A DNA stretch of 64,000 bases from an uncultured Clostridia bacterium. Lineage in GTDB: Bacteria; Bacillota; Clostridia; Christensenellales; UBA1242. The stretch covers positions 8,469 to 72,468 of the forward strand of contig CAKVHZ010000001.1 in NCBI GenBank assembly GCA_934754445.1. Direction: 5' to 3'. Below, piece by piece: positions 977-61,800 of this stretch (the stretch's first letter is position 1; every line of letters begins with the position of its first letter). Below the pieces are notes generated by a model. It did no database searches. It saw only the letters and a list, made by a program, of their open reading frames with translations, and was not told the origin of the DNA. The position numbers were made by a program, and so were the translations under genes.

Positions 977-2378
977 AAATGATTATGAAGTTGTAATCGG
1001 TCTTGAAATTCACGCCGAACTTAACACAAAAACTAAAATTTTCTGTGCGTGCCAAAATAAATTTGGACAAGCACCTAACACAAATTGTTGTTCGGTTTGC
1101 ACTGGTATGCCAGGTGCTTTACCAATTTTAAATAAAGAAGCAGTTAATTTAACAATAAAAGCAGGTCTTTCTTGTGATTGCGAAATTAATGATTATGCTG
1201 TTTTTGAAAGAAAAAATTATTTTTATCCCGATTTAAGCAAGGCTTATCAAATAAGTCAGTTAGTTAAACCTATTTGCGTTGGTGGACATATTACATTATC
1301 TAGTGGTAAAGTTATTAGGTTAAATCGTATCCATTTAGAAGAAGATGCTGGAAAATTAATTCATGGCTTAAACGAAACTTATATAGATTATAACCGTGGT
1401 GGTGTTCCTTTAATAGAAAGTGTTACAGAGCCAGATATATCATCAAGCGATGAAGCGATAGAGTTTTTGACTAAGTTAAGAAATCGTTTTATTTTTAGTA
1501 ATGTTGCTAATTGTAAAATGGAACAAGGCGGAATGCGTTGTGATGTGAACTTGTCGGTTCGAAAAAAGGGTAATACTGAGTATGGAACAAGAACTGAGAT
1601 GAAAAACCTAAACTCTTTTAAATCGGTTGCAAGAGCAATTGAATATGAAGCAAATAGACAAATAGAGCTAATTGAAAAGGGCGAGAAAATTGTTCAAGAA
1701 ACACGAAAATGGGACGATGAAAAGGGTAAAAGTTTTTCTATGCGTTCTAAAGAAGATTCTCAAGATTATCGTTATTTTCCAGACCCTGATTTGTTAACCG
1801 TTAAAATAAAAAGAGAAAATGTTGAAAAATTAAGAAGTGAACTTCCACTTTCTCAAGAAAAACGAATAGAAAAATATACACAACAATTTGGTTTGCCTAC
1901 TAAAGACACCGAAGTTTTGGTTAGTTCTAAAGTAATATCTGACTATTTTGATGATTGTGTAAAAATTTTAAATGAACCTAAAGAAATTTCAAATTGGATT
2001 TTAACGGAAATTTTAAAACTAGAGTTTACCGATAATATTCCTGTAACAAGTGAAAACTTAACTAATATTATTAAACTCGTTTTAGATAAGAAAATATCTC
2101 GAAGTAATGCTAAAATTTTACTTGAAAAAGTTGTAGAAACAAAAAAGGATGCTTTAGTTTTAGCAAAAGAAATGGATATGCTAAGTACAATAAGCCAAGG
2201 AAGTATTGAAAGTATTATTGATAAATTAATTTTGGATAATCCAAAAGCCGTTCAAGATTATGAAAAAACACCAGATAAAGTTATACAATTTTTTATAGGA
2301 AACACTATGAAAGAAACAAAAGGTAAAGCCGATGTTAAATTTGCTAGAGAATATATAATTTCTAAATTAAATAAATAA
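969..2378 (+). CDS. gatB: Aspartyl/glutamyl-tRNA amidotransferase subunit B
   Basis: N-terminus YEVVIGLEIHAELNTKTKIFC and FYPDLSKAYQISQ / HLEEDAGK motifs are typical of GatB. It is coupled to gatA. Confidence 0.95.
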   Translation: MSKNDYEVVIGLEIHAELNTKTKIFCACQNKFGQAPNTNCCSVCTGMPGALPILNKEAVNLTIKAGLSCDCEINDYAVFERKNYFYPDLSKAYQISQLVKPICVGGHITLSSGKVIRLNRIHLEEDAGKLIHGLNETYIDYNRGGVPLIESVTEPDISSSDEAIEFLTKLRNRFIFSNVANCKMEQGGMRCDVNLSVRKKGNTEYGTRTEMKNLNSFKSVARAIEYEANRQIELIEKGEKIVQETRKWDDEKGKSFSMRSKEDSQDYRYFPDPDLLTVKIKRENVEKLRSELPLSQEKRIEKYTQQFGLPTKDTEVLVSSKVISDYFDDCVKILNEPKEISNWILTEILKLEFTDNIPVTSENLTNIIKLVLDKKISRSNAKILLEKVVETKKDALVLAKEMDMLSTISQGSIESIIDKLILDNPKAVQDYEKTPDKVIQFFIGNTMKETKGKADVKFAREYIISKLNK

Positions 2379-2383
2379 AAATT

Positions 2384-2410
2384 TCGACCGATTAATTGGT
2401 CGATTTTTTT
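2384..2410 (+). terminator. Rho-independent terminator after gatB
   Basis: TCGACC-gattaatt-GGTCGA stem followed by T7. Confidence 0.8.
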
Positions 2411-2493
2411 GTTTGCTTTTTATTAAAGTCTTTTAATAATTTTACATTTTTTATTTAGTGTGGTAACATTGTTATAGTTTATAGGGAGAGATT

Positions 2494-3297
2494 ATGAAAA
2501 ATAAAAGTTTAATATTAACGAGAATTTTGTTAGTCGTTTTAATTGTTCCTGCAATTTTTATGCTATATGCTTGCGGAGAACATAAACATAGTTTTGATGA
2601 GACTTGGCAAACTAGTGAAACTGAACACTGGCACGAATGTGTTTTTAAAAATTGTAAAGAAACAAAAGATAGAGAATTACATACTTGGAATGACGGAGAA
2701 ATAACAGTTACTCCAACAGAAACAGCCGATGGAGTTAAAAAATATACTTGCACTGTATGTAATAGAACAAAAATCCAAACTGTTGAATATGTTGCACCTA
2801 TGCTTTCACAAGAAGAATGGGATAGTGCGATGGATTTAACTGATGTTAGTTTTACTAGAACAGTAGTTAGAAATTATAGTGGTAGTGAAAGTAATGAAAC
2901 AACCGAAGTTAGTGGTAAGTTAATACACTTTACTGATTCTTATGGTAGTAATTGTTATTATGAAAAAGACGGCGATTTTTATTATATTTATAAAAAAGAT
3001 AGTTCTAATAATTGGGTAAAAGAAGATACTGAAAAAAAGAATTATGATTACATCAGATTTTGCCTTTCTGTTTTTGCTGGTAAAAGAGATAATTTTCAAT
3101 ATGATACTACAGAAAAAGTTTATTATTGCCAAGAAATTAAAGTAAAAACTGCTGCTGGTCCTACTGAAATTTACTCAAACCCTAAGTTTAAATTTGAAAA
3201 TGGTAAACTTGTAAGTATTACAACAAGTTCAAGTAGTGGAACTATGAATATGACATTTGATTATAAAGATGTAACTGTAACACTTCCAAACACTTAA
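2494..3297 (+). CDS. Hypothetical lipoprotein with Cys/His/Trp-rich N-terminal motif
   Basis: GGGAGAG Shine-Dalgarno (SD) sequence. Signal peptide ends in lipobox-like LYAC. No family recognised. Confidence 0.7.
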   Translation: MKNKSLILTRILLVVLIVPAIFMLYACGEHKHSFDETWQTSETEHWHECVFKNCKETKDRELHTWNDGEITVTPTETADGVKKYTCTVCNRTKIQTVEYVAPMLSQEEWDSAMDLTDVSFTRTVVRNYSGSESNETTEVSGKLIHFTDSYGSNCYYEKDGDFYYIYKKDSSNNWVKEDTEKKNYDYIRFCLSVFAGKRDNFQYDTTEKVYYCQEIKVKTAAGPTEIYSNPKFKFENGKLVSITTSSSSGTMNMTFDYKDVTVTLPNT

Positions 3298-3440
3298 AAA
3301 AATATTTTATAAATCACAAAAATGTTAATTTTAAAACAGTTAATATGTTAAAGGGGTTATACTTAACAGTAAAAACTCCTTTTTATATATTAATTAAATT
3401 TTTTTACAAATGTAAATGAAATACTTAAAATTTAATATTC

Positions 3441-3469
3441 TTGACAAAAATTTTGTTAATGTATATAAT
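3441..3469 (+). promoter_or_regulatory. Sigma-A-type promoter TTGACA-17-TATAAT
   Basis: Exact TTGACA (3441-3446) and TATAAT (3464-3469) with a 17-nt spacer. This argues that the ATG at 3472 is too close and that 3487 (GGAG + 7 nt) is the real start. Confidence 0.6.
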
Positions 3470-3486
3470 ATATGTTGGAGAAACTT

Positions 3487-4017
3487 ATGAAGTTTATTAA
3501 AAAAAAGCAAGAAGATTATTTTTTTAACCTTATTGCTAAGAAGGGACTAAAAAAGAAAAAATCGAAAGAATTTGATAATGATTTTTATAATAAATTAAAT
3601 AACTATTATGATGATAGAACTTTTGGCGAGATTTTAAAAAATGAAGATACTAATGGTTGTTGTTATTTTTATTCTTTAATGCTTGCAAAAAATATGGTAG
3701 GTTCTACTTTGTGTGTAGGGAATTTAAACAGACTAAATAGTGTTTATAATTATAGTTATATAGATACTTTTGGTCATGGCTGGGTAGAAAAAGACAACCT
3801 TGTTTATGATACAACTTCTAAGCAAATTTTTGATAAAGATTATTATTATCATAACTATAATGCCGAAGTTAAAGAAAAAATTAGTAGTGAAGAACTTAAA
3901 AATTTCGATATTTTTAAATCATTGCTTAAAAAATCGGTTGAAAATCGTAGTAAATTAGATAAACTTTCAAAAATTGTTTTAGATATAGAAAGTTTAATAG
4001 AAGAACAAGAAAAGTAA
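3487..4017 (+). CDS. Hypothetical protein, possible transglutaminase-like Cys peptidase fold
   Basis: Ordered Cys...His...Asp pattern (NGCCYFYS ... GHGWVEKDNLVYDTT) resembles transglutaminase-like cores. Start chosen at the second in-frame ATG, which has an SD. Confidence 0.4.
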   Translation: MKFIKKKQEDYFFNLIAKKGLKKKKSKEFDNDFYNKLNNYYDDRTFGEILKNEDTNGCCYFYSLMLAKNMVGSTLCVGNLNRLNSVYNYSYIDTFGHGWVEKDNLVYDTTSKQIFDKDYYYHNYNAEVKEKISSEELKNFDIFKSLLKKSVENRSKLDKLSKIVLDIESLIEEQEK

Positions 4018-4096
4018 TTTTAACATTTTTATTTATTTTTTAATAAGATAAAATGTTAAGCATTTAACTAAAATTTATTTTACAAGGAATACATAA

Positions 4097-5206
4097 ATGA
4101 ATATTTTTGAAATATGCTCTAAATTTAAAATTAAAGCAGTTGCAACAAAAGTTATAAAAAAAGGTATAATTAATAATTCTTGGGAAGTTACCGATTATAA
4201 CGGAGAAGAATATATTGTTCAAGAAATAAATTCAAATATTTTTAAAGATATAGATAGTTTAATGAATAATATAGTTAGAGTTACTAATCACATTAAACAA
4301 AAGTTAGTTGAGTGTGATGGCGATACAAGTAGAGAAGTGTTAAACATTATACCTTATGAAAATAAAAATTATTTTTCTTGTGAAGACGAAAACAAAAAAG
4401 TGCATTATTATAGAGCTTATAAATTTATAAAAAATGCAAGTACTTATGATGAAGCCGATGAGATATTACTTTATCAAGCGGGAATAGGCTTTGGGAAATT
4501 TCAAAGTTATCTTGCCGATTTTGAAGCGGATTCTTTATATGAAAGCATACCAAATTTCCATAATACACTAAAGCGTTTTCAAGATTTTGAACAAGTGTTA
4601 GATAATATAAATTTTGAAACCTATGAAAAAACTCACAAAGAAATAAGAGAGATATTAAAGTGTTATAAATATGCTGATATAATTATGAAACCACTACATA
4701 GTGGAGCAATACCTAAAAGAGTTGTTCATAATGATACAAAACTAAACAATGTAATGCTAGATGACAACACTCATGAGGCAGTTTGTGTTATAGACTTAGA
4801 CACGATTATGCCGGGTAGTTTATTATTCGACTACGGTGATGCTATTAGATATTGTGCGAACAAAGGTAGTGAAGATGATGTAAATTTAGATAATGTTAAA
4901 TTTGATTTTAACAAATTTGTTGCTTTTACCTATGGATTTATGGAAGAAACTTATCAAAGTTTAACTCCTAATGAATTAAAATTAATGTGCAAAGCGCCAT
5001 TAGTTTTAACCTATGAATTAGCCTTAAGATTTTTAACCGATTATTTAAATGGGAATACATATTTTAAATGTGACCCAACAAGAAAAGACCATAATTTAGA
5101 ACGTACTAGAGCACAGTTAAAACTCTTAAAAGAATTTGAACAAAATGAAGAAAAAATGAGAAATGCAATTTATAATATTTATTATAAATGTTTAAATAAC
5201 AAATAA
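4097..5206 (+). CDS. nahK: N-acetylhexosamine 1-kinase-like (APH-fold) kinase
   Basis: VVHNDTKLNNVMLD catalytic loop, IDLDTIMPGSLLFDYGD, and C-terminal HNLERTRAQLKLL match my recollection of Bifidobacterium NahK/LnpB along the whole length. Confidence 0.75.
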   Translation: MNIFEICSKFKIKAVATKVIKKGIINNSWEVTDYNGEEYIVQEINSNIFKDIDSLMNNIVRVTNHIKQKLVECDGDTSREVLNIIPYENKNYFSCEDENKKVHYYRAYKFIKNASTYDEADEILLYQAGIGFGKFQSYLADFEADSLYESIPNFHNTLKRFQDFEQVLDNINFETYEKTHKEIREILKCYKYADIIMKPLHSGAIPKRVVHNDTKLNNVMLDDNTHEAVCVIDLDTIMPGSLLFDYGDAIRYCANKGSEDDVNLDNVKFDFNKFVAFTYGFMEETYQSLTPNELKLMCKAPLVLTYELALRFLTDYLNGNTYFKCDPTRKDHNLERTRAQLKLLKEFEQNEEKMRNAIYNIYYKCLNNK

Positions 5207-5362: not shown

Positions 5363-6673
5363 TCAACTATTTTTTAAAATATTTATAAGCTCGTCTCCAC
5401 TTAAACTCTTTTGTTCAAAAGCATTTAAGTCTTTTAAAGTATAATAATTATTGTTAATTTCGTCTTCTCCAATTATTATTACATAATCGGCATTAAGTTT
5501 TGTAGCATATAAAATTTTATTCTTGAATTTTGTATCTTCAAAATAAATTGTATTATTAATATTATTATCTCTTAATCTATTACTTAAGTTGATACAAGCA
5601 TCTATTGTGTTTCCCATAGGAAGAATTACAACTTTAGCAATACAACCTTTTTCTTGTTTTAATAAATTATTTTCTTTTAGTTGATAGAATAATCTTGTAA
5701 GTCCAATACTCATACCAACACCAGGTAATTTTTCTTTAGAATAAAATCCTGCTAAATTATCATATCTTCCACCACTACAAATACTTCCTAAGTTCTCATA
5801 ACCAGTTATAAATGTTTCATAAACCGTTCCAGTATAATAATCTAGCCCCCTTGCTATTGAAAGATTAATATTAAAATAATCTTCATCAATATTAAAATTG
5901 CGCATATATTTAACAACTGTTTCTAACTCGTTTATTCCATCTATAAAGTTTTGATTATTAATGTTCATTTCTTTAAGCATTCTTATTTGTTCTTCTGTAT
6001 TGCCTTGAATTTTGATGAATTCTAATAATTTATTTATTTTTAAATCGTCTACATTGTAATCAACCTTTAAAGTTTTAACAAAATTGTCTTCACCAATTTT
6101 TGCAAATTTATCTATTAATCTTAAAATATCAATAGAAATTTCTGTTAAATTAAGTTCTTCAATTAAACCTAGCAAAATTTTACGGTTACTTACAAAAATT
6201 TTGAATTTGCCTATGTCTAATTCTTTAAATATTCTATACATTATGCTAGGGATTTCAGCATCGTAACATAAACTTAAAGAGTTTTTGCCGATAACATCAA
6301 TATCGCATTGATAAAACTCTCTAAATCTTCCTTTTTGTGGTTTTTCTCCACGATATACTTTGCCGATTTGATATCTAGCGAAAGGGAAGTTTAAATTTGC
6401 GAAATTTTCTGCAACATATTTTGCTAGGGGAACAGTTAGGTCAAAACGCATACATAAATTGTTATCACCTTTTTTAAAACTGTAAATTTGTTTTTCTGTT
6501 TCTCCACCGGCTTTAGCAAGTAAAACTTCACTACTTTCTAAAACGGGAGTATCTATAGGTAAAAAGCCGAAACTTTCATAATTTTTCTTTATTAAATCTT
6601 TTATTTTGTTAAATAATATTTGGTCTTCAGGAAGCAACTCCATAAAACCGGGCAATGTTTTTGGTTCTATCAT
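5363..6673 (-). CDS. hisS: Histidine--tRNA ligase
   Basis: Class II motifs (FRYEKPQKGRFREFYQ-like GKVYRGEKPQKGRFREFYQCD; GGRYD) plus a C-terminal anticodon-binding domain. AGGAG SD. Confidence 0.95.
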   Translation of the reverse strand: MIEPKTLPGFMELLPEDQILFNKIKDLIKKNYESFGFLPIDTPVLESSEVLLAKAGGETEKQIYSFKKGDNNLCMRFDLTVPLAKYVAENFANLNFPFARYQIGKVYRGEKPQKGRFREFYQCDIDVIGKNSLSLCYDAEIPSIMYRIFKELDIGKFKIFVSNRKILLGLIEELNLTEISIDILRLIDKFAKIGEDNFVKTLKVDYNVDDLKINKLLEFIKIQGNTEEQIRMLKEMNINNQNFIDGINELETVVKYMRNFNIDEDYFNINLSIARGLDYYTGTVYETFITGYENLGSICSGGRYDNLAGFYSKEKLPGVGMSIGLTRLFYQLKENNLLKQEKGCIAKVVILPMGNTIDACINLSNRLRDNNINNTIYFEDTKFKNKILYATKLNADYVIIIGEDEINNNYYTLKDLNAFEQKSLSGDELINILKNS

Positions 6674-6692
6674 AATATTTCTCCTAATTAAT

Positions 6693-6720
6693 TTTATAAA
6701 ATTTATTTTTATTTTGTCAA
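6693..6720 (-). promoter_or_regulatory. Proximal hisS promoter candidate TTGACA-16-TATAAA
   Basis: TTGACA at 6720-6715 and TATAAA at 6698-6693 on the minus strand, about 20 nt upstream of the hisS SD/ATG. Confidence 0.45.
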
Positions 6721-6740
6721 TTATATTTTTTAATTATGTT

Positions 6741-6775
6741 AATAAAAAATCACACTTTGTGTTACAAGTGTGATT
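6741..6775 (-). terminator. Intrinsic terminator inside the hisS upstream region
   Basis: Minus strand: AATCACACTT-gtaacaca-AAGTGTGATT followed by TTTTTATT. No upstream minus-strand gene exists for it to terminate. Confidence 0.7.
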
Positions 6776-6832
6776 TACTAAAAACAATTCAACTCGCAAC
6801 ACAGCAAACAAGTGTTGCTTTCACAACACAAA

Positions 6833-6868
6833 TTAGCTATGATGATGAATTGAAATAAATTTAATCAT
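6833..6868 (-). CDS. 11-codon mini-ORF MIKFISIHHHS (candidate His leader peptide)
   Basis: ATG ATT AAA TTT ATT TCA ATT CAT CAT CAT AGC TAA. It begins 6 nt after a -10 box and has no SD (leaderless geometry). Confidence 0.3.
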   Translation of the reverse strand: MIKFISIHHHS

Positions 6869-6874
6869 ATTATT

Positions 6875-6903
6875 AATATATCTTTTTATTTTTTATTTGT
6901 CAA
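6875..6903 (-). promoter_or_regulatory. Promoter TTGACA-17-TATATT driving the mini-ORF/leader
   Basis: TTGACA 6903-6898 and TATATT 6880-6875 on the minus strand. Confidence 0.5.
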
Positions 6904-6951
6904 GAAAATTCTGAAAAGTTTTTAATTTTAATTTTTAATTTGCTTTAAAAA

Positions 6952-6960
6952 TGATATAAT
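6952..6960 (+). promoter_or_regulatory. Extended -10 (TGaTATAAT) for the lipoprotein gene at 6982
   Basis: TG at 6952-6953 and TATAAT at 6955-6960. The -35 is weak. Confidence 0.4.
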
Positions 6961-6981
6961 AAAAATAAAAAAGGAGAAAAT

Positions 6982-7635
6982 ATGAAAAATATATTAAAAA
7001 AATCTTTGCTAACAATAATTGGTTGTTTTGTTGTAGTTTTCACAATTTTTCTATCTGCTTGTGGAGATAAACCTTTAGTTAAACCTTGGGGCAAAACTTT
7101 AGGTTATTCGGGTATGACAACTATAGATAATATGATTTATACTATTGATGGTAAGAATTTAAAATTATCAAAAATATTAACAGACTATTTTGATAAAATA
7201 GATTGGAAAAGTTCAATTAATATGACTAAAACCGAAGTTGGCGATGGAGCTAACGCATTAAAACTTGTAAAACAAAAATTAATGGATAACTTTGATGAAA
7301 CAGAGTTGCAAAACACTAAATTTATATTCAGCGAAGAAAAAGATAAAAAAGTTACAATTAACTCAAAAGAATATGATGTAGAAGTAAAAGGCGAAGGTCG
7401 AAATTTGCAGTATAATATTATTTTTGCAAATGAAGAAAATAATATAGATACTGCTACAATGAATTTATACGATTCTAATGGTGATTATTTTGTATATGTT
7501 TATGGTGGTTCAGTTATTCAAAATGGTAGTAGTTTTTTAAATATTACTTTTAATGATGATGTTTTGGTGGGAGCAACTGGATTTGCTACTAAAGGTGGAA
7601 GTATATCTCTTTGCATGATGGCATTATTTAAGTAA
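6982..7635 (+). CDS. Hypothetical lipoprotein
   Basis: AAGGAGA SD. Signal peptide with canonical lipobox LSAC. Confidence 0.7.
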   Translation: MKNILKKSLLTIIGCFVVVFTIFLSACGDKPLVKPWGKTLGYSGMTTIDNMIYTIDGKNLKLSKILTDYFDKIDWKSSINMTKTEVGDGANALKLVKQKLMDNFDETELQNTKFIFSEEKDKKVTINSKEYDVEVKGEGRNLQYNIIFANEENNIDTATMNLYDSNGDYFVYVYGGSVIQNGSSFLNITFNDDVLVGATGFATKGGSISLCMMALFK

Positions 7636-43767: not shown

Positions 43768-43840
43768 AATATAAATAATTTAATTATATTATTTTGTGAT
43801 AAAAAATGCACTTTGTTACAAAATAAATTTAGGAGTAATT

Positions 43841-46800
43841 ATGAAGATAAAAAAACTTGCGACTATTTTATTTGTTACACTACTTTCTTTTATGGGGGTA
43901 TTCTTTGGCTGTAAACCAAATTACAATAATTTTAGTATTGAGGTTAATGGCGAGAACACCATTAATTTAAGCACGAAAGAAATAGGGGATTTAAAAACTG
44001 AAGCATATGTGCAAATAAATATTAAAAATGCACCAAATGATGCTTGCAGAAATATTTCTACTCAAGTAAGCAAAGGGAATATTATAACTATTTCTAAGGT
44101 GGAAAATAATAATAAAGATATCGCAGTTTTCAAGATTAAAGCACTAGAAAATATATCTTCATATGACCCTAGTTGTGAAGTTACTTTTAAAAGTGCAGAA
44201 GGTAACAAAACTTGCAGGTTAAAAGTAAATGTTATCATTCCTGTTACAAATATTACAAAAAATGATGCATATAGCCCTTATGTTGTTGCTGGCGATTTAG
44301 ACGAAAACGGACAAGCAAATAAATATTACATAGATACGGCTAGTTTAATTACTTTCTCTCCAAGCAATACTACACAAAGAGATATTGTTTATAGTTTAGT
44401 TGATGAAACTTTAAAGGATAGATATGACATTGTTGTGTTAGAAAATGGTGCGATAAGTGTCGGCAAAGTTTTTGATGAAAGTAATGTTGCTGTTCCTACT
44501 AGCATTAAAATTAATGCAAAAAGCAAAAGTGATGAAACAAAAAGTTTTGATTTTGATGTTAGAGTTTTAAGAGCAATTTCTTATGATGATTTTGAAATTA
44601 GTTATAGATACGATACTATAGATGCCGAAGAACAAAAGTTTAGTGGAGAAGATGATTTAATTGAGGGCGCTGACAATTCTACAACAATTAATACTTTAAT
44701 AAAAAACGGTATTTCTCTTGCATCAAATAAAGACTCTCAAAGAAATGTTGAATTTAATATTTCTATGCTTGCTCAATCTGGATTAAGTTTTGATGAAATT
44801 GAAGTTGAGTTTAAAAATAATACTTTAAACAATGCTTTAATTGAATATTTAAGCACTAATGATATTAAAACAATTAAAAATTATAAAATTTATTCAACGA
44901 ATTCTGGAAACGATGTTTTGGTTGTAAAACTAAAATACAAAGGCATTTATGATTATGCTAAAACTGTTGAAATTCCAATTTCAGTTAAAGAATATCCAAT
45001 TTCTTTAATGGTTAATGCTAGTGATAAAGATGTTTATAATATTTTTGATTTTTATGAAAATTCTGTTAAAGGCGAAGAATTTAATGTTGTTGTAAGTAAA
45101 TTAGGTGCTTATGATAGAACATTTAAAATCGTTATACCTGAAGACCAATTTAATCTTGTTGACATAAGATACAATAACAAATTATTAGATTATGAAACAT
45201 TAACAAATTTAACTTTTGATAGTGGTAGTAGTATATTCATAAAAGCAAAAGAAGTTTTGTCAGTTATAGATTTTGACTTGATGCCAAAAATTAGTTTTGT
45301 TTCATCTTCTTTATTTGTAGATGGAAATTTACCAAATGACATACTAACTACCGAAGAAGGGAAAAAACTATCAAAAACTATAACTTTAAATTTACTACCT
45401 GGAGTTAAAACACTAGAATATGATGGTGTTTTCTTAGAAGAAAAAGATTGTTATTATCTTCAAAGTAAAAATAACCAAATAGTTATTGACTATGTTATTA
45501 ACAAAGAATTTGTGCCAGAATTAAGTAGTGTTATTAATATCGAATTTTTACAAGGTGAAAATTTAATTAAATCTATTGAAAATAGAATTGACAATGTTAA
45601 CAACAAATTGCAATTTGTTTTAACAAGTGGCGAAGATTTAGGTCAAGTTGTATTTTATTTAACTAGTCAAAATGGTTTAAAAACAAAACAAAAGAAAATT
45701 CAAATTTATAATTATTACGATGAAAGCCTTGAACAATTTAGTTTAAAACTGGAAAGTAATAACTTAAAACAATCTAAAATAGGTGAAGATACTAAATATT
45801 ATCTAGGACTAGCCGAAGGTAAAAACTTTGCTAATATTAAAGTAGAAAACCCACAAAATGCTACTATTTATGATGTGGTAATTGAAAGTAGTAATGAAAG
45901 TGCTATAAAACCTACAATTTTAAATAAAGAAAATTTAACCTTTAACCTTTTTGCATTAAATGAAAGTGTAGACCCAGTTAAAATTACAGTTAAAATTTTA
46001 GTATATAGTGCTAATGATGTTGTAAATAATACAATGCTTCAATCCGAAATTGTGCTTGAATTTGAAGTAAATACCTACTATCCTATAACTGCGGTAGAAG
46101 TAAAACAAGAATCAGTTACTGTAGTTGATGGCATGAGTTTAGATATTGATAGCAAAAACAAAAAATTAAATGTTTTAGATGTTGAAAACTTAATTGATAT
46201 CCAAAGAAATGGGGATATTTATGCGGGGCTAAAAGTTGAATATATTTTCCCTACAAACTTTATCGAATTTAAAAACTTTACTTACAACTATAATGCAATA
46301 GATAATCAAAGTTATGCATTAGAAGAAAAAGAGGGCAGTCCATTTAAGAAAATTATTTTCTTTGCAGGGAAATCTCATAAATTTGTAAACAATGAATATA
46401 GTTTTAGATTAACAATTAAAATTTATGACCTAGAAGGTGGCGAAGGCTTAGCGCCTATAACACTAAACATAGTTTTAAAAAATCAAGTTCAAGTAGATAA
46501 TATCGAAATTTTAAATGATGATGGATTTGTTTATTTACAAGATACTGATGTTTATGGTCAAATATTAACAAAAGTTTCTTCAAAAACTGGCGAAAAAGTT
46601 ACAAACTCTAGTTTAACTTACGAAATTGTTGAAAACAATAATAGTGTTAATTTAGATAATGAAGCAGGTGTTTTAACAATTAAAGCACCAGGTGTAACAA
46701 AAGTTAAAATTAGTGCAAATTCAAGTAAATATAACGAAGATGATGAATTTGCGGTATATAGATATGTTTATGTGATTGTTGCAGATGGTAGTAAAAATTA

Positions 46801-49800
46801 TCCATATATTTTAAATGCCAATGATGTAACAATTACTAACGGAAAATATTACACTTTAAAAGAAGATGTTGTTTTAAATAATCAAATAGATGCAAGCATT
46901 AATCAAGGTGGAATTTATGGTCAATTTGCTTATTATGAATATTCAAATAAAAAAGCAAATTCAACATATAATTTAATCTATAAAGGTTTAAATAGTAGTA
47001 TTTTTGCAAGTAATGAAACTTCATTTGATTTTAAAAATATAAACATTGTAATTGAGAGTAGCATTTTAAATGTTAACGATGACTTTGGGCTAATTTCTAA
47101 AGTGAATAAAGGCATTATAGAAAAAGTCAATTTAACAATTTCTAGTTTAGATATAAGTGGTAACTCTTCAAAACTAGGCTTAATGTTTGCCGAAAACGAA
47201 GGCGATATAATAAATTCTAGTGTTAGTGGTAGTGTTATAATTAATATTCCTAATGTTAGTTTTGGTGGTTTAGTAAGTGAAAATAACGGAACAATTAAAG
47301 GCTCATATAACTTTTTAAATAAAACCAATAACGAATATAATGCAAATTTAACTATTGTTGATAAAAATAATAGTAATATAGTTGCTGGTTTAGTTGCTAC
47401 AAATAACGGAGAAATAACTAACATAAAAGTAAATGCAGTTATTAAAAGTAATGCTAATGTTTTAGCAGGTTTAATAGGTAGCATAGAAACTACTGATAAA
47501 AATTATGAGAACTTATACTTTACTGGTAGTTTAAATAATTCTTTAGCAAGTTCTATACTTGGTGGAATTATTGGTCAAGTTTTATACAACAACTCTTTTG
47601 AACTACTTTCTGTAAACTTTATAGAAAATGTAAATAACTCTAACTATATGATTAGTGGTTCAGTTGTTGGTGGGCTTGTTGGCGAGATTAAAGATAGTAG
47701 TATTAAATTTAGTTATGTAACAAGTTTTGTAAACAATCAAAACTTAAATGGTCAAGTAGTTGGTGGCTTGGTTGGTAAATCTTTAGGAAACTTAAATTTA
47801 CAAGCAGTTTATAGTAATGTAAGTTTAACGGGAGAAAAATTAGGAGCATTGGTAGGAACTAGTGAAAATATAGTGATTAGTGATGCTTATAGTAAATCTA
47901 CTGGTGCTAATAGTTTAGTAAATGAAACAACTAATGCTAGTGTTAATGAAACTTATTCGGTAAGCCAACAAAAAGTTGTTGAAAATGGAACATTTACAGG
48001 TAGTAATAATTACACAGTTTCAAACTATTTAGAAACATTAAATAATAGTTTATTTAGTGATGGAAACTTCTTTGTTATTTCTACAGATTACAATAATGGT
48101 TTACCATATCTTGTTTATAATAAAAATGGAAACTATAAAAAATTATTAACTATAGAGGCTCTTAAGTTAAATGCTAATTTCGTAATAGGCTCAGGTAACT
48201 TTGGTAATCACTTATACGGAACTGACAAAAACTTAATAGTTATTGAAGAAAATAATAACATTTATAATAAAGCAGTTATTTTCTATCAAAATAATTTAGA
48301 ATATAATTTAGATGACTTTATAAATATTACTAGTGAACCAAGTGATGCAAATATTAGTGATTTAGTTAGAATTTTAAGTTCTAATGAAAATATTATAAAA
48401 ATTGCTGATGGAAAAGTTAAGATTGTTGGCACGGGTAATGTAATTATTACAATTCAATCTAAAACGAATAGAGATGTTAAAACCGAAGTTTATATTAATG
48501 TTATTAACAAAATTACTAACTTTAATTTAGACTATAACAACATGATTGTTGACGGTGATAACTATAACTTTAATATCTCAAAATCTAATACAAAACTATT
48601 TGGTTACAATATATCTAATAAAACTAATAATATGGGTATATATTTTGGTTTTAGTAATAACCCAGTTAATAGTTTATTAATCAACAATGAAAAGGTAGTA
48701 AATAATAGTGCATTTATAACTAACGATTTAGTAGTATATGCTGGTAGAGATGTATTTAATAGTAATGTTAAAGTAGCACCATTCTATAGTTTAGATTTTA
48801 ATGGAACAAAAATTAACTTAATAGAAAATGATTTAATTTTAAATAACTTAATTATTAATGTTTTAGAAGGTGCAACTTCTATTAGTGTAAGTAATACTTC
48901 TATAACAGTAACAGAAAAAGAAGAAGCAGAATTTGATGTTTTTGTTACTCCTACATCGCTTTTAGGCGATTTAGAATTTGAATATACCGATGATTTAGGT
49001 AGTATTTTAGATACTCCTAGTGTAACTTTAATTTCAAATGATAGTGGATATCTAGTTTATAACGTTAAAGTTAATGCAAAAGCAGTAAATATTGTTGAAG
49101 AAAAAATTGGTCAATTAAAAGTATGGCACAATACTAATAAAGATTTATATTCTTATGTTAATATAATTGTTAGAAGTAGTAAATTAAAAAGTGTAGAACT
49201 AAATCATTATGGTAGTAAAGTAACAAAATATGATGATTACAATAGCATAATAACAAAAGCAACAACTCCTAATACTGAAATAGTAACAGGTAATACTGGG
49301 GTATTAAACATTAATTTATATCCAAGTTATGCTAATATTACAAAAGTTGAAATTTATAGTTCAGTTAATAACGGAAATTATATTTTATTTAATCAACTTG
49401 CTTATAATAATGATGATAAACTAGTAGTAGTTGATAATCGTGGTAATATTAAATATGGATTAAGTTTAGATGTTGCGAAATCTCGTTTAAATGCGGGTAA
49501 ATTTAGTTTTGATGGTAATTTATATGTTTCTACATTATTATCTTCAAATGTTATAGAAAATACAGTATTTACAGTAACTGTAGTTTGTTATACTTTAAGT
49601 GGTGAAACATTAACAAGTTCTATAGAATTAACTGCTAAACCTTTAACAAGTGTAATATTAACAAATGCTAACGGAAGCAAAGATTTCTATTTAGCAAAAG
49701 GTGGAGAATTAAGATTAAAAGTTAATAAAGTAAATTTAACCGAAGATGCGATTTCTACTATCTCTTACGAGTATGACAATAGAATTATCAGTATCACTCC

Positions 49801-52800
49801 AGAAGATGATGAATTAGTAGTAAGCACAGGAATTTTAACTCCAAGAAACACTCAAGTAACTATTACTCCTAAATTTATAACTTATATAAATGGTCAAAGA
49901 ATAGAAGCAAAAAGTAATTCAATAACTATCACCATTGTAGATTTTGTTGTAAATGAAATTTATGTAGAAGATAGTGAAGACGGGGTTTTAAATAATAACC
50001 TAGGTAATTCTACTTTGCTTAAAGCAAAAATAAATGCCGAAATTGCAGATGTTACTAAACTTACTAGCGACCAAGAAAAATTAGAGTATTCTAATATATT
50101 ATTAAAAATTGCAACTTTAGAAGAATTAATAAGCAAAGATAATTTAACTTGGAACTTAATAACTCAAAATAATAGTGGAACTTTAATTTATAATAACTTA
50201 AAAGAAAATGGTATTTATACTAACTTTAAAGTTGGCATTAATGAAGATGGTTATTATTATGTTGTTGGTAAAGTTATATCTAATAACAATATGGCTTTAA
50301 GAGCAAATATTAGTTATGAAAAAGGTTTAGTTACTTTAAAAAGTAGTTCTAATAACGAATTCGTAACCGGCTTTGCATTAGTCGTTAAAACTTATTCTAG
50401 TTTAGATAATCCACTTCCTATAACTAGTAAAGAAGAATTCTTGAACATGCAAGAAGGTCAAGACTACATTTTATTAAACGATATTACTTTAGATGCAGAA
50501 TTTAGTGGTATTAGTGTTAATGTTTCTAGTTTTGATGGTAACAATAAAATAATTAACTTACAAGGTTTTACTATATTAGATGCTAGTGTTCAAAATTTAG
50601 GTTTATTTAACACTGTTGGAGAAGACTCAGTAATTAAAAATGTTACAGTAAATATTTTACCTTCAGTGTTCTATATAGGAACGGATAGTAAATATGGGCT
50701 AAGAGTAAATGCACAAGAATTAACCAGTTTAAATTTTGGTTTAATTAGCGGAACAAATAATGGTGTAATTACAAATTGTAAAGTAGTAAATAATAACAGT
50801 AGAATTGTAAACAAAAACAATATTTATAAAAATATTACAATCTATGTAAACACAAGTGAAAGTGTTGATGTAAAAATCGGTGGTGTAGTAGGTGTAAACA
50901 ATGGCTACATTACAAATAGTAGTTTTGGTAGTAGAAACAAAAACTCTATTACTATTAACTCTATTGCTGAAATTGGTGGATTTGTTTGTATAAACAACAA
51001 AAAGATTGCATCAAGTTCAGTAAAAAATATAACAATTTATAATAATGCAAAATCAAAACTTACAGGTGGTTTTGTATGTGAAAACAATAATGGTTCTTCT
51101 ATTATAACAAGTTTTGTAGAAGGTTATTTAGAAGGCTCTAGAGATGAAGTTACAGAATATATAAAAGACGGCGGAATATTTGCTAATGGTTATGTTGGTG
51201 GATTCGCTACAATTAATAGCGGAAACATTAAAGATAGTTATTCAAACATCGTTATTTCAACAAATAAAAGAAGTGCGGGTTTTGTATACAATAACACTAA
51301 TGGTTATGTAGAAACTTGTTATTCTGCTAGCAAAAGTGCAAAATCTACTCAAAGTTATCGTGGATTTGTTGGAAACAACGAAGAAAATATTACACTTGAT
51401 AATGCTGGTATAAAATATTGCTATTTCTTAGGTGATAGAAATGAAAATGCTGGCGAAGATGAATATTCGGAACACGCAAATCAAATAGTAGATTTAGTAA
51501 AAGCAGAATATTTAGAAGGATTTATTTATGATAATTCAACTTCAACAATTTGGAGTTTTGACGGATTAAGTCTTCCAAAACTATATGATGCAGAAAAACA
51601 AATAATTTGTGAAAGAAAATTATTAGATGATAATAAATCCAGTGGAAATACTGAATTATATGAATATATATATATAAATAATAATATAGGAACTATTAAT
51701 AATCCTATTATGGTATCTTCAACTGAAGAATTGCTTTCTGCCTTAACAATGGAAGAAAACTTGTATTCATATTACTACAATAATAAACTTCAAAAAACTA
51801 ACATTAATTACAATCATATTATTTTGGTTAAAGATATTGATTTGTCTAAATTAATAGATGCTAACAACAATGTTGTTAACTCAGATAAAGAAGTTCAAAA
51901 ACTTCAAGATATAGTATTTGCTGGTAATTTTAATGGTAATGGTATGACTATTGAAAATATCACAATTACAGCAAAAAATAATACGAACTATACTTCATTT
52001 GGTTTATTTAAACAAATAGGCATAGAAAATATTTATAACACTAATGGAAAATTATATAATAATAAATTAGATGAAGATAATTGTAGTGTAATTAAAAATT
52101 TAAATTTAAGTATAGTTAATATTTCTGCTACTTTAACAAAGAGTGTAGGAACATTAAGTGGTGAAGTTATTAATTCTAAACTTTATAACATATCAGTTAC
52201 TGGTGGAACAAATGTTGTTGTAACTGGTGCTAATATGGTTGGTGGTATTGCTGGTAGAATAAGCGGAAACAGTTATGCAAAAGGTATATCAAGCAGTTTA
52301 TCAGTAAAAGCTACTTACGATAATAAAACTAGTAATTACGATTATAATGTAAACAAAACTAAAAATATTTACAGAAATGCTAACAGCAATATTGTTTTAA
52401 ACGATAATGATAATAACTATCGAGTTAATATTGCGGGAGGATTATTTGGTGTTGTAGATATTTATAAAACTGAAGTAGTATCTTTAGTTCAATCTGCAGG
52501 CACTTATTCTTACTATATTAATGGTAAAATTAATAGAGATAACGATGAAAATTTAACTAATGCAAACATTCAATTTGCAAGAGTAACTGATGAAATTTCT
52601 ATAAGTGGAGATATTGTTGGTGGACTATTTGGTTATGTTGAAAGTGGTAGTAAAATTTACGATGCAAGATTAGTTTTAAGTGCTAATTCAAATCAAAATA
52701 TTTTAGCAAGGTCTATTGCCGGTGGTATAATTGGTAAAAACAAAGGCTTTGTTTCATATTTAACGGTTGAACATGAATTATCAGTTCAAAGACAATTAGA

Positions 52801-55800
52801 TGCTTTAAAACAAGAAGAATACAAAGACGGTCATTTATTCTCTAGCATAGATAATAAAGCGATATATGTAGGTGGTTTAATTGGTGTAATAGAAAATGGT
52901 AGAATTGAAAACAGTTATTCTAAGGCAAACATTATTGCTAAAAATTCTATGTATGTAGGTTCTATTGTTGGTAACTTTATAGATAGTAAAATGAATTTTG
53001 TTTATGCTGTAAGTTACTTAGAAGCACAAGATAAAGAAGAAACTACAAGTGGAGTCATTACTAAAAATGCTGGCTATGCTGGTTTAATTGGTAGAATTAG
53101 TAGTTTTAGTGGTGGTTCACTAGGAAATATTAGTTCGGTTATAAGAAACACAAACACAGATAGCATAAAATATAATCTAGCAGGCTTAATTGGTTATAAT
53201 TTACAAGAAAGCGTTAGATTTATTGATAGTGAATTTGTAAACAATATAAATGGAGAAGAAAACAAAACACCTGCTTATTATGGCAAAGCTATAAGTTTTA
53301 CACAAGATGTTAATAAAGAATATAATGATTTTGTTGTTGGAACTAATACATTTAGAAATTATGTAAATAGTGATAACTGGATTATTAATAAAGCACAAGG
53401 CGATGTATTCTATCGTTTAACCTATAATAAAAAAGGTGCTGTAAGAGCAATTAAAACTGAAGAAGATTTAAAGAACTTGTTAGCAAGTGGCGGAGAATTG
53501 CAAAACGATATTTACTTAACTACTCCTTGGAATCCAATTTCATCTTTTAGTGGGATACTAACAAGTGCAGAAAGACCAGTAGAAGATAGAGAAAAAATAG
53601 GTCCAGACGGCGAAAAATTAGGACAATATTATAAAATATTTAACTTAAATATTAACGAAAAATCTAATAATATTGCTTCAAATATTGGGTTATTTGCAAC
53701 TACTCAATCAGCGAATATTAGCAATATAACAATAGTAGTTGGTTCAAATTACAGCCATGCTGATGAATTTGGCAATATTATCACTTATAACAATTTAGGT
53801 AGCGATAGATATGGTATTGTTATAAACAATAAAACATTAGAACCTAAAGATAACATTAACAATTTAGGCACATTGAGTGGCTATGATAAAGGTTCAAGAT
53901 TTACTAATGTTACTGTTAACTTTGTTAGTCATAACATTAGTGGCGAAAATAAAATTGTTAACCCTATAGAAACAAACTTAACTCATGTTGGTGGACTAGT
54001 AGGAACAAGTAGTGAATCTACTTTTGAAAATATAACTATTCGTAATTTAAAAATAACCAAATTAGATTTTAATGAGAATGCCTTTGTTGGTGGGCTTGCA
54101 GGCTTATTAACAGACATTAAAGAAATTAGAGGTTTAGTTATTGAAAATATTGCTTTAGGCGATGAAAATGTTGGTAAAATAATCAACAATCAAAAAGCAG
54201 GTTATAACTATATTGGCGGTGTTGCAGGTAGAATTATTAATAATTATGACTTGGCAATAATCGGTCAAAATATAGATGATAGCGAAGAACCTAGTTTAAT
54301 TAAATTAACAAAAGTTAAACTAGAAAGCGATGGCGGAGAAATGGTCTTTGCTGGTATGATGTCGGGAGAAGTTGCAAAAGCAAATATTAAAAATGTAATT
54401 ATTGAAGATTCATCAATAAGTGCAACAACAACAAATAAAGATTTAAGTTTATTTAGTATTGGTGGACTAATAGGTTCTAGCACAAATTGTGAAATTAATA
54501 ATGTTAACATTAAATCTAATAATAAAATTGAAGCCGAAACAGGAGATAATACTAACTTTATATTAAATGCTGGTGGATTAATTGGACAAAGTTTTAGCGG
54601 AGAAATAACCAATATAAATATTTCTGCTCAATTAAATGTTTCTACTAAAAACACTAATGTTACTTCAGTTGGTGGTTTAATTGGTAGGAATGGAACAAGC
54701 GGAGATCTGTTGGAAGCAAGTGATAGAACTGGCTCTATAGTTAAAAATGCTACTGTTAAAACCTATATTAAAGTAAGTGGTGCTATTGGTAGCAAAGATA
54801 AAAACTTTGTATACATTGGTGGTATTATAGGATATAACTATAAAACTGAAATTGGAAATTCTATCTTTTTAGGTTACATTAAACCATTAGTAAGTATGTC
54901 TAATTATGTTGGCGCTATTATTGGTGCTAATATTGATAATAGTGGTTTAATTAATAATGCTAGTCAATTTGAAGACACCGTAGATAATCAAATTAAAGTT
55001 TATGCCATAGAAGACTTAAACTCTATTAATAAACGAAATATTGATTTTGGAACATTCATTTCTTACGATAATTTTATAAAAGATATAAATAAATATTTAC
55101 CTATTAAAGTAAATAATGTAGATGACATTTTAGCAGATGAAGAAATTGACAGTATAAGTGGAGAAACGATTATTTATAAACAAGGTAGTGTTTATAACCC
55201 TTACATTTTAGATAATACTTCATTGATTGAAGATGCAGACACTGGTTTATATGTTATAAACAATGATGATAACTATGTTCACTTTGTTTTAAATGAAGAT
55301 TTAAGTTTAGATAAAACAATAAAAGAATTAAATGGTATTATTATTGGTAATGGATATAAATTAATAGAGCAAAGCACATTGTTTGGGAAAATTAATAATA
55401 ATGCAATGATTTCAAGTGTATCTGTTGTTTTAGAAAATAAAGAAATTAACATTAATAATACAGATTATACTAAAAATGTAACAAGTATAATTTCTAACGA
55501 AAATAATGGTTTAATTTACAACCTTGTAACTAGCGGTAATATTTATTACGAATACGACAACGAAACAACGCTTTTAAGTGATTTGGCTTCGGCTGTTGTT
55601 ACAAATAATGGATTTATTAATTTAGTTACATCTTCTTCACAAATTTTAATTAATAAAAACTGTGATGATGATTCTAGCGAATCTAATTTAGTTAGTGGCT
55701 TTGTTGCTAAAAATACTGGTGCAATATTTAACTCTATTGCAGTTGGCAATATCCAAAATTATCAAAAAGTATTAAATGCTAACAAAATTAATACATTCCT

Positions 55801-58800: not shown

Positions 58801-61800
58801 AACAATTCAAAATATATACTTTGAAGATCCTTATGTTACAAATGTTGATACTACTAAGGGTGTAACAAGTAATTTATATGTTGGTGTAGTTTCTGGGGCA
58901 AATGCCGGAACAATTCAAAACATATTAATTAATGCTTATAGCGCAACATCATTTATAAATTTAGATTATAAAGATATGGAAGGCACTGATGAAGGGAATA
59001 CACGATATGTTAATATAGGTGTAATTACGGGTGCAAACATCTTGGGCAAAATTACAAAATGTGAAGTTATAAATTTAAGTTCATCAAATGCAATACAATA
59101 TGATTTTAAATTGACTGGTGGAACTACTGATAGACCACATAATGTTAAGGTTTATACTGGTGGCATTGTAGGTAAAAATTATATTGGCGCAACTGTTGAA
59201 AATAATATATTTATGGGTTGTATTAAGGGTAATCTTGTAAATTCTTCACTTTACTTTGCATCTTTAACTGGAGCATTAAGTGGAACAAGTGGTTTACTTG
59301 GTTGGCTTGGTTCTAAGTTGCCCGATGTAGTAAAGACTGCGTTATTTACTGCACTATACTCTGAAACATCGCATTATCTTGGTTTAATAGTGGGTGCAAA
59401 TGAAGGAACACTAGGGCAAAACTATGGATTTAATTGTGATACTGACACTAAAAAAGACTTAGTAAAAAAGAAACTATTAAATTTCTCAACTTCAAATCCG
59501 GGTAAAACTATTAGTATTGGTAAAGAATTTTCTGCTATGGAAGTGAATGTTAATCGAAGTATGATTGTAATGGGATTGTCACCATTAATGGGTGTTGCGA
59601 CGAAAAAGGCAATCACTTCAATTGTAGGTGTTTTCAGTAAAGCCGCTGCTAATAGTATTGGTAAAGGTGGACCAATTACGACTATTGTGGTAATGGCACT
59701 AACTCTTGTTCAGGAAGGTGCGGGAATGATTAGAAATAATAATTCACTTCATATAAATAGAAATGCACACGGAGTATGCAAATATCCAACAGGTATGAGT
59801 TTATCTGATGTAACAAACTCTCCATATTGTAGTTCTTTATTCTCTAGTGATATTTTAGATGGAACAAACTACATTTTTATGACAAGTAAGAGCACGAATA
59901 CGTTAAATCAAAAGGAAATTCCTATCTTAACAGATTTCTTAAATATAAGCAAAAAAACTGAAAACAAAATTTTGACCCCTATTAATGGAAATTATTATGT
60001 AAAAACTATAGAAGAATTTGCTAAAGCAATAACAACATTAAATGGCAAAAACATTATATTAATGGATAACATTGATATGACAAAAGTTGTTTGGGATTAT
60101 GCTAATGGCTCTATAAAAACAAATAATATAACAACTAATGGATTTAAAGTTGTATATAATTTGAATACTACCTTTAAAGATGAATATGAAACTAAGTATG
60201 GAACTTGTGATTACTTAATCGCAAAATCAGATAATGCAAATGAATATGGTAAATTTAATAAATTCAAAATTTCTTCTAATGAAGCAAGTTATAATGAATT
60301 CAATGAAAGATTTAGATCAGCATTTAAAACAGATTATGAAAAGGAACATGGAAATACTCTCGGTTTCGAAAAAGCATATAACGATTATGTTGATAATGGC
60401 GAGTATCCTATTAGATGTGTTGAACAACTATATGTAATTGGAGAAAGTTTATATTCTTACATTAAAGATGATAGATTTCATAAGGGTATAAATTTTAAAG
60501 GTAAAAAATTTGTATTAGTTAAAAACCTAAATTTAGATGGCGCTTTACAAGACAGCATAACCAAAAAGGAGAGTGGCGACTACGCAAATTATCTTCTAGG
60601 TAAAGTTACCGATTATAACAAATTTGCAGGCATAGATAACATTTATCCACAAAGTATGGTAAATAATGTGGAAGGGGAAATTTATGTTTACAATGTAGAA
60701 ACTAAAGACTATGACTGGGTAAAACCTGAAGATATAGATAATTTTGATAACTACAAAATTGTTTATGGAGATGCTTCAAATCGAATTGTATTTACTGGTA
60801 AAACACAATTTGATGCTGAATTTGATGGAAAAGGAAAAACATTAACAGTATCTAACCATTTATTCGCTGAACTTGGTAGTAGTGCGAACTTACACAATTT
60901 AACATTAAATGTAAAAGGTAATAATATCGTAACAGGGATGACAAGTTTTGGATATGTTGCCGATGATAACTATGGAATAATTAAAAATGTAACATTAAAT
61001 GTAATGACAAATGCAGTTAGTTTAGTAGGAGCAACTCCAATTGAAGCAATCTATTACACGACAAATTACCATAAAGCATATACAGATGGTGAAAAATCTT
61101 ATAGGAATACTGCTTATAGTGATATTTCTTTACAAATGGGTTTGGTTGCTGGTTATAATAGTGGAAATATTGATACTTGCGATATTAAATTTAGTTCTAA
61201 TGTATTCAATTTTAATTACAATGCAAAATATGTTAGAAATGCTGAAACCGACTTTGAATTTGTTAACGGTGAAGAAATAGAAAAAATTAATAGTGCAGAA
61301 TTTGATTATATTGTTAGTGTAGATATTAACCAAGGTATAGTTTCTGGTGACAACTATGGCAACATAAATAGTATTAATTTAAGCAATGTAATATTAAACA
61401 TGGAAACAGAAGTAACGAGTGACGGTTTTAAAGAAAACGATAAAATTGCAACAAATTATAACTACGGAATTATTTCGGGTTCATCTACTTATGGTGGAGA
61501 AAAGCAAAAACAATTAACAAATATTTTCATTAAAGATACTATATTAAATATTAATACAAAAAATGATGCTAACGGACAAATAAATAGTGGTTTGATTTGT
61601 GGCTATAGTTCTAGTTCGTGTGAAGATATAATTTTAATTAACAATTTAATCCAGTTAACAAATATAGTTAAATATTCTGCTACGGGACAATTGTTTGGTA
61701 TATTATCACCAATGGTAAAAATAGATTCTAAAACTCCTGAATTTGATGATGAAACTGGCGAACTAAAAGATTCACGAACTATTGTTAAATATTATAACGA

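Follow-up and report, generated by a model that had tools for sequence, protein, structure and literature searches.

In Firmicutes, aminoacyl-tRNA synthetase (aaRS) genes are the textbook case of T-box control, and classical attenuation was long thought to be absent there (PMC1262725). How, then, is hisS controlled in a member of the Clostridia in which the gene carries no T-box? The gene in question, which encodes histidyl-tRNA synthetase (HisRS), lies on a stretch of 64,000 nucleotides (nt) of contig CAKVHZ010000001.1 from an uncultured Clostridia bacterium (hereafter the window), and is preceded by a promoter (P1), a small open reading frame (sORF) with three consecutive His codons, competing hairpins and an intrinsic terminator. 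We hold, with good confidence, that this unit is a ribosome-mediated leader-peptide transcription attenuator through which hisS responds to the supply of charged tRNA-His, a function that we infer from the sequence, folding, conservation and recurrence of the unit. Most likely, hisS is turned up when charged tRNA-His is scarce, in a role usually taken by a T-box.

A histidine-codon leader and its alternative folds

The DNA before hisS contains the parts expected of an attenuator, namely an open reading frame (ORF) with tandem cognate codons, an intrinsic terminator, an antiterminator exclusive with that terminator and, in silico, a fold that depends on the position of the ribosome (Table 1; positions at the hisS locus are those of the window, on the minus strand unless marked +). 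An earlier note on this DNA, made from the letters alone, had listed P1, the peptide MIKFISIHHHS, its three His codons, the hairpin segments and the terminator, all of which were found where it had placed them. The note also gave another promoter-like site (P2), past the terminator and before hisS, which is present as TTGACA and TAAAAT at a distance of 18 nt. It had also claimed that the terminator serves no upstream gene on the minus strand, and this holds since the nearest gene upstream of hisS, an ORF at 6982-7635, lies on the opposite (+) strand.

No T-box was found in front of the gene. Over positions 6400-7200, Rfam at E<=10 returned no T-box (RF00230), no His_leader (RF00514) and no other real family, in agreement with the negative consensus search of the earlier note, and the T-box model was sensitive enough for the hisS T-box of a distant relative (L152; loci of relatives are numbered with the prefix L) to reach the gathering score as a positive control. 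Three microRNA-like matches on the terminator hairpin at the same threshold were set aside as chance matches. At the gathering score, only three tRNA genes (His, Ser and Gln) were detected in the 64-kb window, with no riboswitch, T-box or ribosomal-protein leader. Among relatives, the T-box pattern TGGNACCRCG was absent upstream of hisS in the first 80 loci (L001-L080), and a scan of the window and 30 loci at the gathering score gave no His_leader and a T-box upstream of hisS only in L152. When 20 of the first 80 loci were scanned with Rfam, the sole T-box, in L070, was downstream of hisS; among all 160 loci, the exceptions with a T-box upstream of hisS were L121 and L152.

The -10 hexamer of P1 ends 6 nt before the leader ATG. 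Because a -10 box is spaced 6-7 nt from the ATG, transcription is predicted to start at the A of the leader AUG (6868), and the leader peptide is accordingly predicted to be translated from a leaderless mRNA in the window lineage. The same geometry is shared by L161 (TTGACA-17-TATATT-6-ATG), L001 (TTGACA-17-TAAATT-7-ATG), L005 (TTGACA-18-TAATAT-6-ATG) and L002 (TTGACA-17-TAATAT-6-ATG). The homologous leader of L162 and L163 has an AAGGAG Shine-Dalgarno (SD) sequence 8-9 nt upstream of the ATG instead, within 376-420 of these loci, which corresponds to 6869-6913 of the window. The earlier note had counted the missing SD as a caveat; the absence is real in the window, but the caveat is eased by a promoter geometry that predicts a leaderless mRNA and by the SD of the L162 and L163 homologs. 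That two distinct initiation modes keep one ORF argues, at the level of sequence, for translation of the leader ORF.

The leader is predicted to fold into a highly stable structure. Its 128 nt (6868-6741) reach -43.3 kcal/mol, against -23.0 +/- 3.4 kcal/mol for shuffled sequences (z = -6.07), none of the 200 shuffles being as good. In the ribosome-free minimum free energy (MFE) structure, a long hairpin between the ORF and segment 3, with hairpin 1:2 at its apex, is followed by the terminator, and the pairing of segment 0, the half of the ORF that holds the His codons, sequesters the 5' strand of the antiterminator. The antiterminator strands are GUGUUGCGAG(U)UGA at 6802-6789 and UCA(CA)CUUGUAACAC at 6773-6759; together they take up the 5' arm, the loop and the start of the 3' arm of the terminator, making the two structures mutually exclusive, and the antiterminator region (6805-6757) folds at -16.3 kcal/mol compared with -12.9 kcal/mol for the terminator. 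As previously claimed, hairpins 1:2 and 2:3 exclude each other. Hairpin 2:3 also competes with the antiterminator; we propose from the modelled folds that, with segment 1 masked, it acts as an anti-antiterminator. Segment 1 lies only 3 nt from the stop codon and would therefore be covered by a terminating ribosome.

While a His attenuator on hisS, as the earlier note had suggested, is borne out by folding, conservation and recurrence, the pairing scheme drawn there is not, having missed both the antiterminator (6802-6789 with 6773-6759) and the pairing of the His codons with 6805-6788. The note had also let ACACTT of the middle segment pair with AAGTGT of the terminator 3' arm, and this has to be abandoned: L161 (GGGCATGATTT) and L001 (CGATGGCTTC) have other 3' arms, with segment 2 unchanged. 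A short antiterminator drawn by eye (CGAG/CUUG and UGA/UCA only) was superseded by the 10-bp helix reaching G6802-C6759.

Folding with and without a ribosome mask, a check that the earlier note had proposed, gave a switch pattern in all four lineages folded. A ribosome footprint was simulated in silico by masking up to 13 nt past the A-site, and the best terminator-containing fold was compared with the best antiterminator-containing fold. The terminator advantage (in kcal/mol, for ribosome-free RNA, a footprint on the second His codon and a footprint on the stop codon, respectively) was 13.6, 1.1 and 1.9 in the window, 9.9, 1.3 and 8.1 in L161, 9.8, 2.5 and 3.7 in L162, and 6.9, -0.9 and 6.2 in L001. 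With the footprint on the second His codon, the pairing between the ORF and segment 3 is lost and hairpin 1:2 is left free. In window RNA ending before the terminator 3' arm, the MFE structure with masked His codons consists of hairpin 1:2 and the antiterminator; in the ribosome-free state of the same RNA, the terminator 5' arm is unpaired. In the growing transcript, the antiterminator is complete some 12 nt ahead of the terminator 3' arm.

From these folds, the following course of events can be proposed. Transcripts from P1 would have the AUG of the 11-codon leader ORF as their first bases. With the ribosome absent or gone, the 3' half of the ORF and its CAU codons would pair with 6809-6788 in a stem topped by hairpin 1:2, so that the antiterminator strand would be locked, the terminator (6776-6747) would form and transcription would stop at about 6744. 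A ribosome at the stop codon would cover segment 1 (6829-6823), letting segment 2 (6818-6812) capture segment 3 (6802-6796), and the terminator would form here too. When His-tRNA is scarce, the ribosome would stall on the CAU codons (6847-6839), freeing segment 3 while hairpin 1:2 stays; the freed segment (6802-6789) could then pair with 6773-6759 while the terminator 3' arm is yet to be transcribed, blocking the terminator. RNA polymerase would then read into hisS and probably on into tRNA-His. P2, lying downstream of the terminator, may supply constitutive basal expression of hisS.

Table 1. Features of the hisS locus (window positions) and of two related loci with a peptidase gene (positions of the respective locus).
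Feature	Positions	Strand	Details
Promoter P1	6875-6903	-	-35 TTGACA 6903-6898, 17-nt spacer, -10 TATATT 6880-6875; 11/12 consensus
Leader ORF MIKFISIHHHS and stop	6833-6868	-	ATG 6868, TAA 6835-6833; 11 codons; no SD
His codons CAT CAT CAT	6839-6847	-	proposed sensing site
Segment 0, 3' half of leader ORF with His codons	6832-6854	-	pairs 6809-6788 in ribosome-free MFE
Hairpin segments	6829-6824, 6818-6812, 6802-6796	-	GTGTTG, GCAACAC, GTGTTGC
Hairpin 1:2	6812-6829	-	GUGUUGU-GAAA-GCAACAC; -8.5 kcal/mol; 5' arm begins 3 nt past stop codon
Alternative hairpin 2:3	6796-6818	-	GCAACAC 6818-6812 with GUGUUGC 6802-6796; -10.0 kcal/mol
Antiterminator 3:4	6759-6802	-	10-bp helix G6802-C6759 to G6793-C6768, plus UGA 6791-6789/UCA 6773-6771
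Intrinsic terminator	6744-6776	-	AAAUCACACUU / AAGUGUGAUUU; 11-bp stem 6776-6747, 8-nt loop, -12.9 kcal/mol, U-run to 6744
Second promoter-like site P2	6691-6720	-	TTGACA 6720, 18 nt, TAAAAT 6691; 11/12
hisS SD	6685-6681	-	AGGAG; hisS ATG at 6673
hisS, histidine--tRNA ligase	5363-6673	-	436 aa; TIGR00442, 391 bits (cutoff 287)
Promoter-like site of tRNA-His	5366-5338	-	TTGACA(5366)-17-TG-TAATAT(5338); overlaps hisS stop
tRNA-His(GUG)	5322-5246	-	40 nt 3' of hisS stop codon; no intervening terminator
Strong terminator after tRNA-His	5244-5214	-
L002 leader	1165-1335		R1 match 1203-1320
L002 M20 peptidase gene	1336-2445
L004 leader	1637-1895
L004 M20-hisS operon	1896-4323

Conservation of the leader and recurrence of His-run leaders before hisS

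Homologous leaders precede hisS in L161 (HisRS 93% identical to that of the window), L162 and L163 (82%) and L001 (76%), where they encode MIKIISMHHHS (L161), MSKFISIHHHS (L162), MIKYISIHHHS (L163) and MKIKSLLHHHSI (L001). In an alignment of these four with the window (alignment A1, five sequences), the ATG, three CAY codons, the stop codon and the reading frame are conserved, the stop of L001 being moved by exactly 3 nt and thus in frame; conservation of the CAT run and of the hairpins, on which the earlier note had made its claim depend, is therefore seen in all four relatives. The switch segments are invariant (GTGTTG, GCAACACTT, TGTTGC-AG and TCA--CTTGTAACA), as is expected where bases must serve two or three partners. 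Variable parts are the N-terminal codons, the 3:4 loop (also in length) and the terminator stem, which in L161 has two compensatory pair changes (C-G to U-A and A-U to G-C). All seven pairs of hairpin 1:2 are kept in 5/5 homologs, with no variation; 97% of cells are paired in hairpin 2:3 across the five homologs, again with no variation and so with no evidence of covariation; and 92% of cells are paired in the antiterminator, where one-sided changes from G.U to A-U occur. Between the window and L162, DNA identity is 90.5% in the leader, compared with 78.8% in hisS and 42-51% in flanking non-coding DNA. No gene was called at the leader position in any relative examined. A scan of metagenome contigs gave no relatives above 60%, and the only new leader homologs among twelve further contigs examined were those of L161 and L162/L163.

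Leaders with a run of three His codons (HHH) and a terminator also recur before hisS, in forms of unrelated sequence, in at least six other lineages of Clostridia. In the 160 loci, nine HHH sORFs were found within 350 nt upstream of hisS on the same strand, compared with 0.30 expected from the background rate in the same loci, an enrichment of about 30-fold (Poisson P ~4e-11). One of the nine, in L036, was not counted as a leader, having no recognisable promoter or SD and no identified terminator after it. His-run leaders followed by terminators and unrelated in sequence precede hisS in L005 (MIKMSLRHHHR), L021 and L024 (...THHHNYSMSAL and ...THHHIYSMSAS), L040 (...AHHHCMGILAC), L043/L085 (...KLHHHCRSTCIA) and L129 (...LTHHHHH). 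Each of these leaders, and that of L070 (...YHQLNHVHHYGHFFVC), has a promoter and a terminator and usually an SD. A covariance model built from A1 (R1) detects only L005 (36 bits) among them and, marginally, L021/L024. The His run is paired with a downstream segment in the ribosome-free MFE structure of most of the other hisS leaders folded, the leader of L070 being an exception. From the T-run of the terminator to the hisS ATG there are only about 26-40 nt in L129, L040, L085 and L001; these loci have no room or signal for a promoter past the terminator, and hisS must therefore be read through it.

Other His-rich sequences were noted near hisS. The hisS leader of L070 is rich in scattered His codons (MTNNMNNYHQLNHVHHYGHFFVC), and a T-box (107.5 bits) that presumably controls the next gene lies directly downstream of L070 hisS at 4320-4513 (+), so that both mechanisms coexist in one locus. 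In L016 ('Clostridium sp. CAG:1193'), an sORF with five His (MIEIRCFKHHHRFHFAHHCFCALFLK; 4453-4533, +) comes shortly after hisS and tRNA-His. No other codon-run sORFs were found when the intergenic leaders of the window were searched.

Objections and rival explanations

Several points weigh against a His-responsive attenuator of hisS. We infer each functional step, from the start of transcription and the translation of the sORF to stalling, termination and readthrough in response to His; the leader ORF has only three His codons; and, given P2, hisS of the window genome might do without the P1 unit. In the folding of window RNA, the terminator is slightly favoured at equilibrium in the full transcript even with a His stall (P(terminator) ~0.8), and in the truncated transcript the antiterminator remains the MFE structure under the stop-codon mask. 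The decision must therefore be kinetic, that is, co-transcriptional, and termination in His sufficiency depends on kinetic trapping by hairpin 2:3 or on refolding once the ribosome has been released. Covariation is thin, with five sequences and invariant switch segments, and shuffle controls were not significant for the antiterminator or hairpin 2:3. The distribution of the leader among relatives is patchy: it is absent before hisS in L002 and in L164-L174 (HisRS identities of 72-81% over this whole set and of 74-81% in L164-L174). L002 does have a homolog detected by R1 (E = 1.5e-5), which precedes a gene for an M20 (ArgE/DapE-like) peptidase 1.7 kb upstream of hisS.

The L002 leader shares the leaderless geometry and the GTGTTGC/GCAACAC hairpin with that of the window, encodes the peptide MSKNINKVHHCK and includes a terminator. 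In L004, an SD-led HHH leader (MTNLFVTLHHHS) with a terminator is followed by an M20 peptidase gene and then directly by hisS. The two peptidases are orthologous (42% identical), and no homolog was found in the window. Judged by sequence, the M20 peptidase is possibly His-responsive. Since the leader is found before either the M20 gene or hisS, the module moves between genes, as has been noted for attenuators in general (PMC2965389).

If the stretch from P1 to the terminator were an independent small gene or small RNA, as the earlier note had allowed, hisS would be transcribed from P2 only. P2 is indeed present between the terminator and hisS, matching the consensus at 11 of 12 positions, with P2-like sites also in L161 and L162/L163 (none in L001), and the P1 unit is complete in itself, spanning about 128 nt from promoter to terminator. 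However, the only peptide feature conserved across unrelated leaders is the His run, and it is associated specifically with hisS; L001, L129, L040 and L085 have neither a promoter nor room for one past the terminator; and a stand-alone gene would have no use for an antiterminator overlapping the terminator and released when a ribosome occupies the His codons. We therefore consider an independent gene improbable. The most economical reading of the two promoters is a tandem arrangement for an essential gene, P2 being a possible constitutive basal promoter and P1, with the attenuator, a His-inducible one. An attenuator that senses the general translation rate or ribosome availability, with incidental His codons, would suit a leader with as few as three such codons and a leaderless start that could track initiation-competent 70S ribosomes, and the terminator is strongly favoured without translation. 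This is very improbable given that runs of at least three His recur in independent, sequence-unrelated hisS leaders and that the His codons are positioned precisely so that a ribosome stalled there would free the antiterminator strand and spare hairpin 1:2.

Scarcely any weight is left for a non-canonical leader that binds tRNA or protein, such as a degenerate T-box or a site of HisRS autoregulation, in which the sORF would be untranslated. Although aaRS genes of Firmicutes are typically controlled by T-boxes (PMC1262725, PMC2494555) and the window sORF has no SD, neither the Rfam search at E<=10 nor the pattern search upstream of hisS in the first 80 relatives gave a T-box signal, and the frame, start and stop of the ORF are conserved, including across an in-frame 3-nt indel, with an SD acquired in L162/L163. 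Least probable of all, and effectively refuted, is the view that sequences resembling a promoter, an ORF and hairpins merely happen to lie side by side in AT-rich intergenic DNA. The region does abound in promoter-like matches (11 vs 6.2 expected), but the folding energy (z = -6.07), a conservation of the leader above that of neighbouring non-coding DNA and the HHH enrichment (P ~4e-11) all speak against chance; terminator-like sites number 3 in the region vs 0.2 expected.

Surroundings of hisS and comparison with known systems

Downstream, hisS is probably co-transcribed with tRNA-His, and the leader attenuator may thus also raise tRNA-His levels; the linkage of the two genes is also found in L001, L002, L003, L004 and L016. 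Upstream, a gap of 308 nt separates hisS from the divergent ORF at 6982-7635, whose 217-aa product has no family match. On the + strand of this gap, within the leader ORF region and back-to-back with P1, is a promoter-like site (6850-6879, TTGAAA-18-TAATAT, 9/12), which, judged by its sequence, could be the promoter of the divergent ORF. Four of five neighbouring ORFs tested had no NCBIfam match, and three of them had no Pfam match either. Positions 43796-62596 (+) of the window form one ORF of 6266 aa, the first 3000 residues of which gave no Pfam match at E<=0.001. The G+C content of the window is 25-29%. In a species-level genome collection, the closest HisRS sequences (top, 76% identical) belong to uncultured Clostridia, namely Christensenellales-like metagenome-assembled genomes and 'Clostridium sp. 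CAG:1193'-type gut bacteria, and the assumption of the earlier note that the host is a Firmicute therefore holds.

A broader reading would be that, throughout a clade of gut Clostridia that are uncultured, low in GC and small in genome, attenuators have replaced the hisS T-box, at least five unrelated forms having arisen or diverged. In the window lineage the leaderless mRNA would start at the A of the AUG, so that a sensor of about 160 bp would couple the first transcribed codon to attenuation, and such attenuators would also drive tRNA-His and, in relatives, the M20 peptidase, forming a small regulon of His-tRNA charging. We put forward this combined reading tentatively, with slightly more doubt than belief. 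Recurrence in several unrelated forms supports an easy exchange or re-invention of attenuator sensing modules (PMC2965389). Regulatory sORFs of this kind are currently missed by annotation pipelines, the present leader having no Rfam match and its position no called gene in the relatives examined, and a compact, apparently leaderless attenuator offers a test case for transcription-translation coupling in Clostridia.

Among the systems close in design is the enterobacterial his leader (hisL; RF00514), which also combines a tandem-His short ORF, alternative hairpins and a terminator with a register shift driven by stalling, and which likewise terminates without translation. In the enterobacterial leader this shift is between B:C/D:E and C:D/E:F, and the window shows the same logic; the E. 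coli his leader has seven His codons, compared with three in the window. The window differs in having no RF00514 match at E<=10, in regulating a synthetase rather than a biosynthetic operon, in being predicted to be leaderless instead of SD-led, and in its Clostridia host. Mycobacterial poly-Cys attenuators (bioRxiv 10.1101/834739) share with it a leaderless, amino-acid-responsive sORF with a codon run, although these are from an actinobacterium and concern cysteine, and the window has an evident canonical terminator/antiterminator pair. The T-box (RF00230) that controls hisS in Bacillus and many Firmicutes reads the same signal, the charging of tRNA-His, and likewise acts by antitermination into hisS, and one is present at the same position in the distant relative L152. 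However, it senses uncharged tRNA directly, without translation, and no T-box sequence or structure is found in the window.

Classical attenuation of aaRS genes has been described for pheST in gamma-proteobacteria and for trpS and leuS in Streptomyces, and in 2005 was stated to be absent from Firmicutes (PMC1262725). The leaders of E. coli pheST (pheM) and of Streptomyces trpS and leuS resemble that of the window in placing an aaRS gene under a cognate-codon leader peptide and a terminator, but they concern other amino acids and phyla, and their sequences are unrelated to it (PMC1262725). The earlier note had called such an attenuator unusual for a Firmicute aaRS gene, which is fair on this evidence (PMC1262725), although it is not unprecedented (PMC2965389, PMC9413887). 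Naville & Gautheret (2010) predicted His leader peptides upstream of a hisS paralog (hisS*) and of hisZ in Bacillus (PMC2965389), and Ashniev et al. (2022) predicted leaders containing 3-5 His codons for the his operons of the B. cereus group, Peptostreptococcaceae and Erysipelotrichales (PMC9413887); no similarity across lineages was reported among these leaders (PMC2965389, PMC9413887). Compared by description, they share with the window the phylum, the class of mechanism and the design, in which 3-5 consecutive His codons precede antiterminator and terminator hairpins, and include one precedent on a hisS-family gene. They differ in controlling a hisS paralog or biosynthesis genes, the main hisS there keeping its T-box, whereas the target in the window is a full-length, tRNA-His-linked hisS without a T-box in uncultured low-GC Clostridia. 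A limited literature search found no paper in which hisS of Clostridia or of Christensenellales is preceded by leaders of this type. The class of mechanism, to which the enterobacterial his, trp and pheST leaders belong, is thus already known, and what distinguishes the present case is its tRNA-His-linked hisS target, its occurrence in several unrelated forms and its predicted leaderless peptide.

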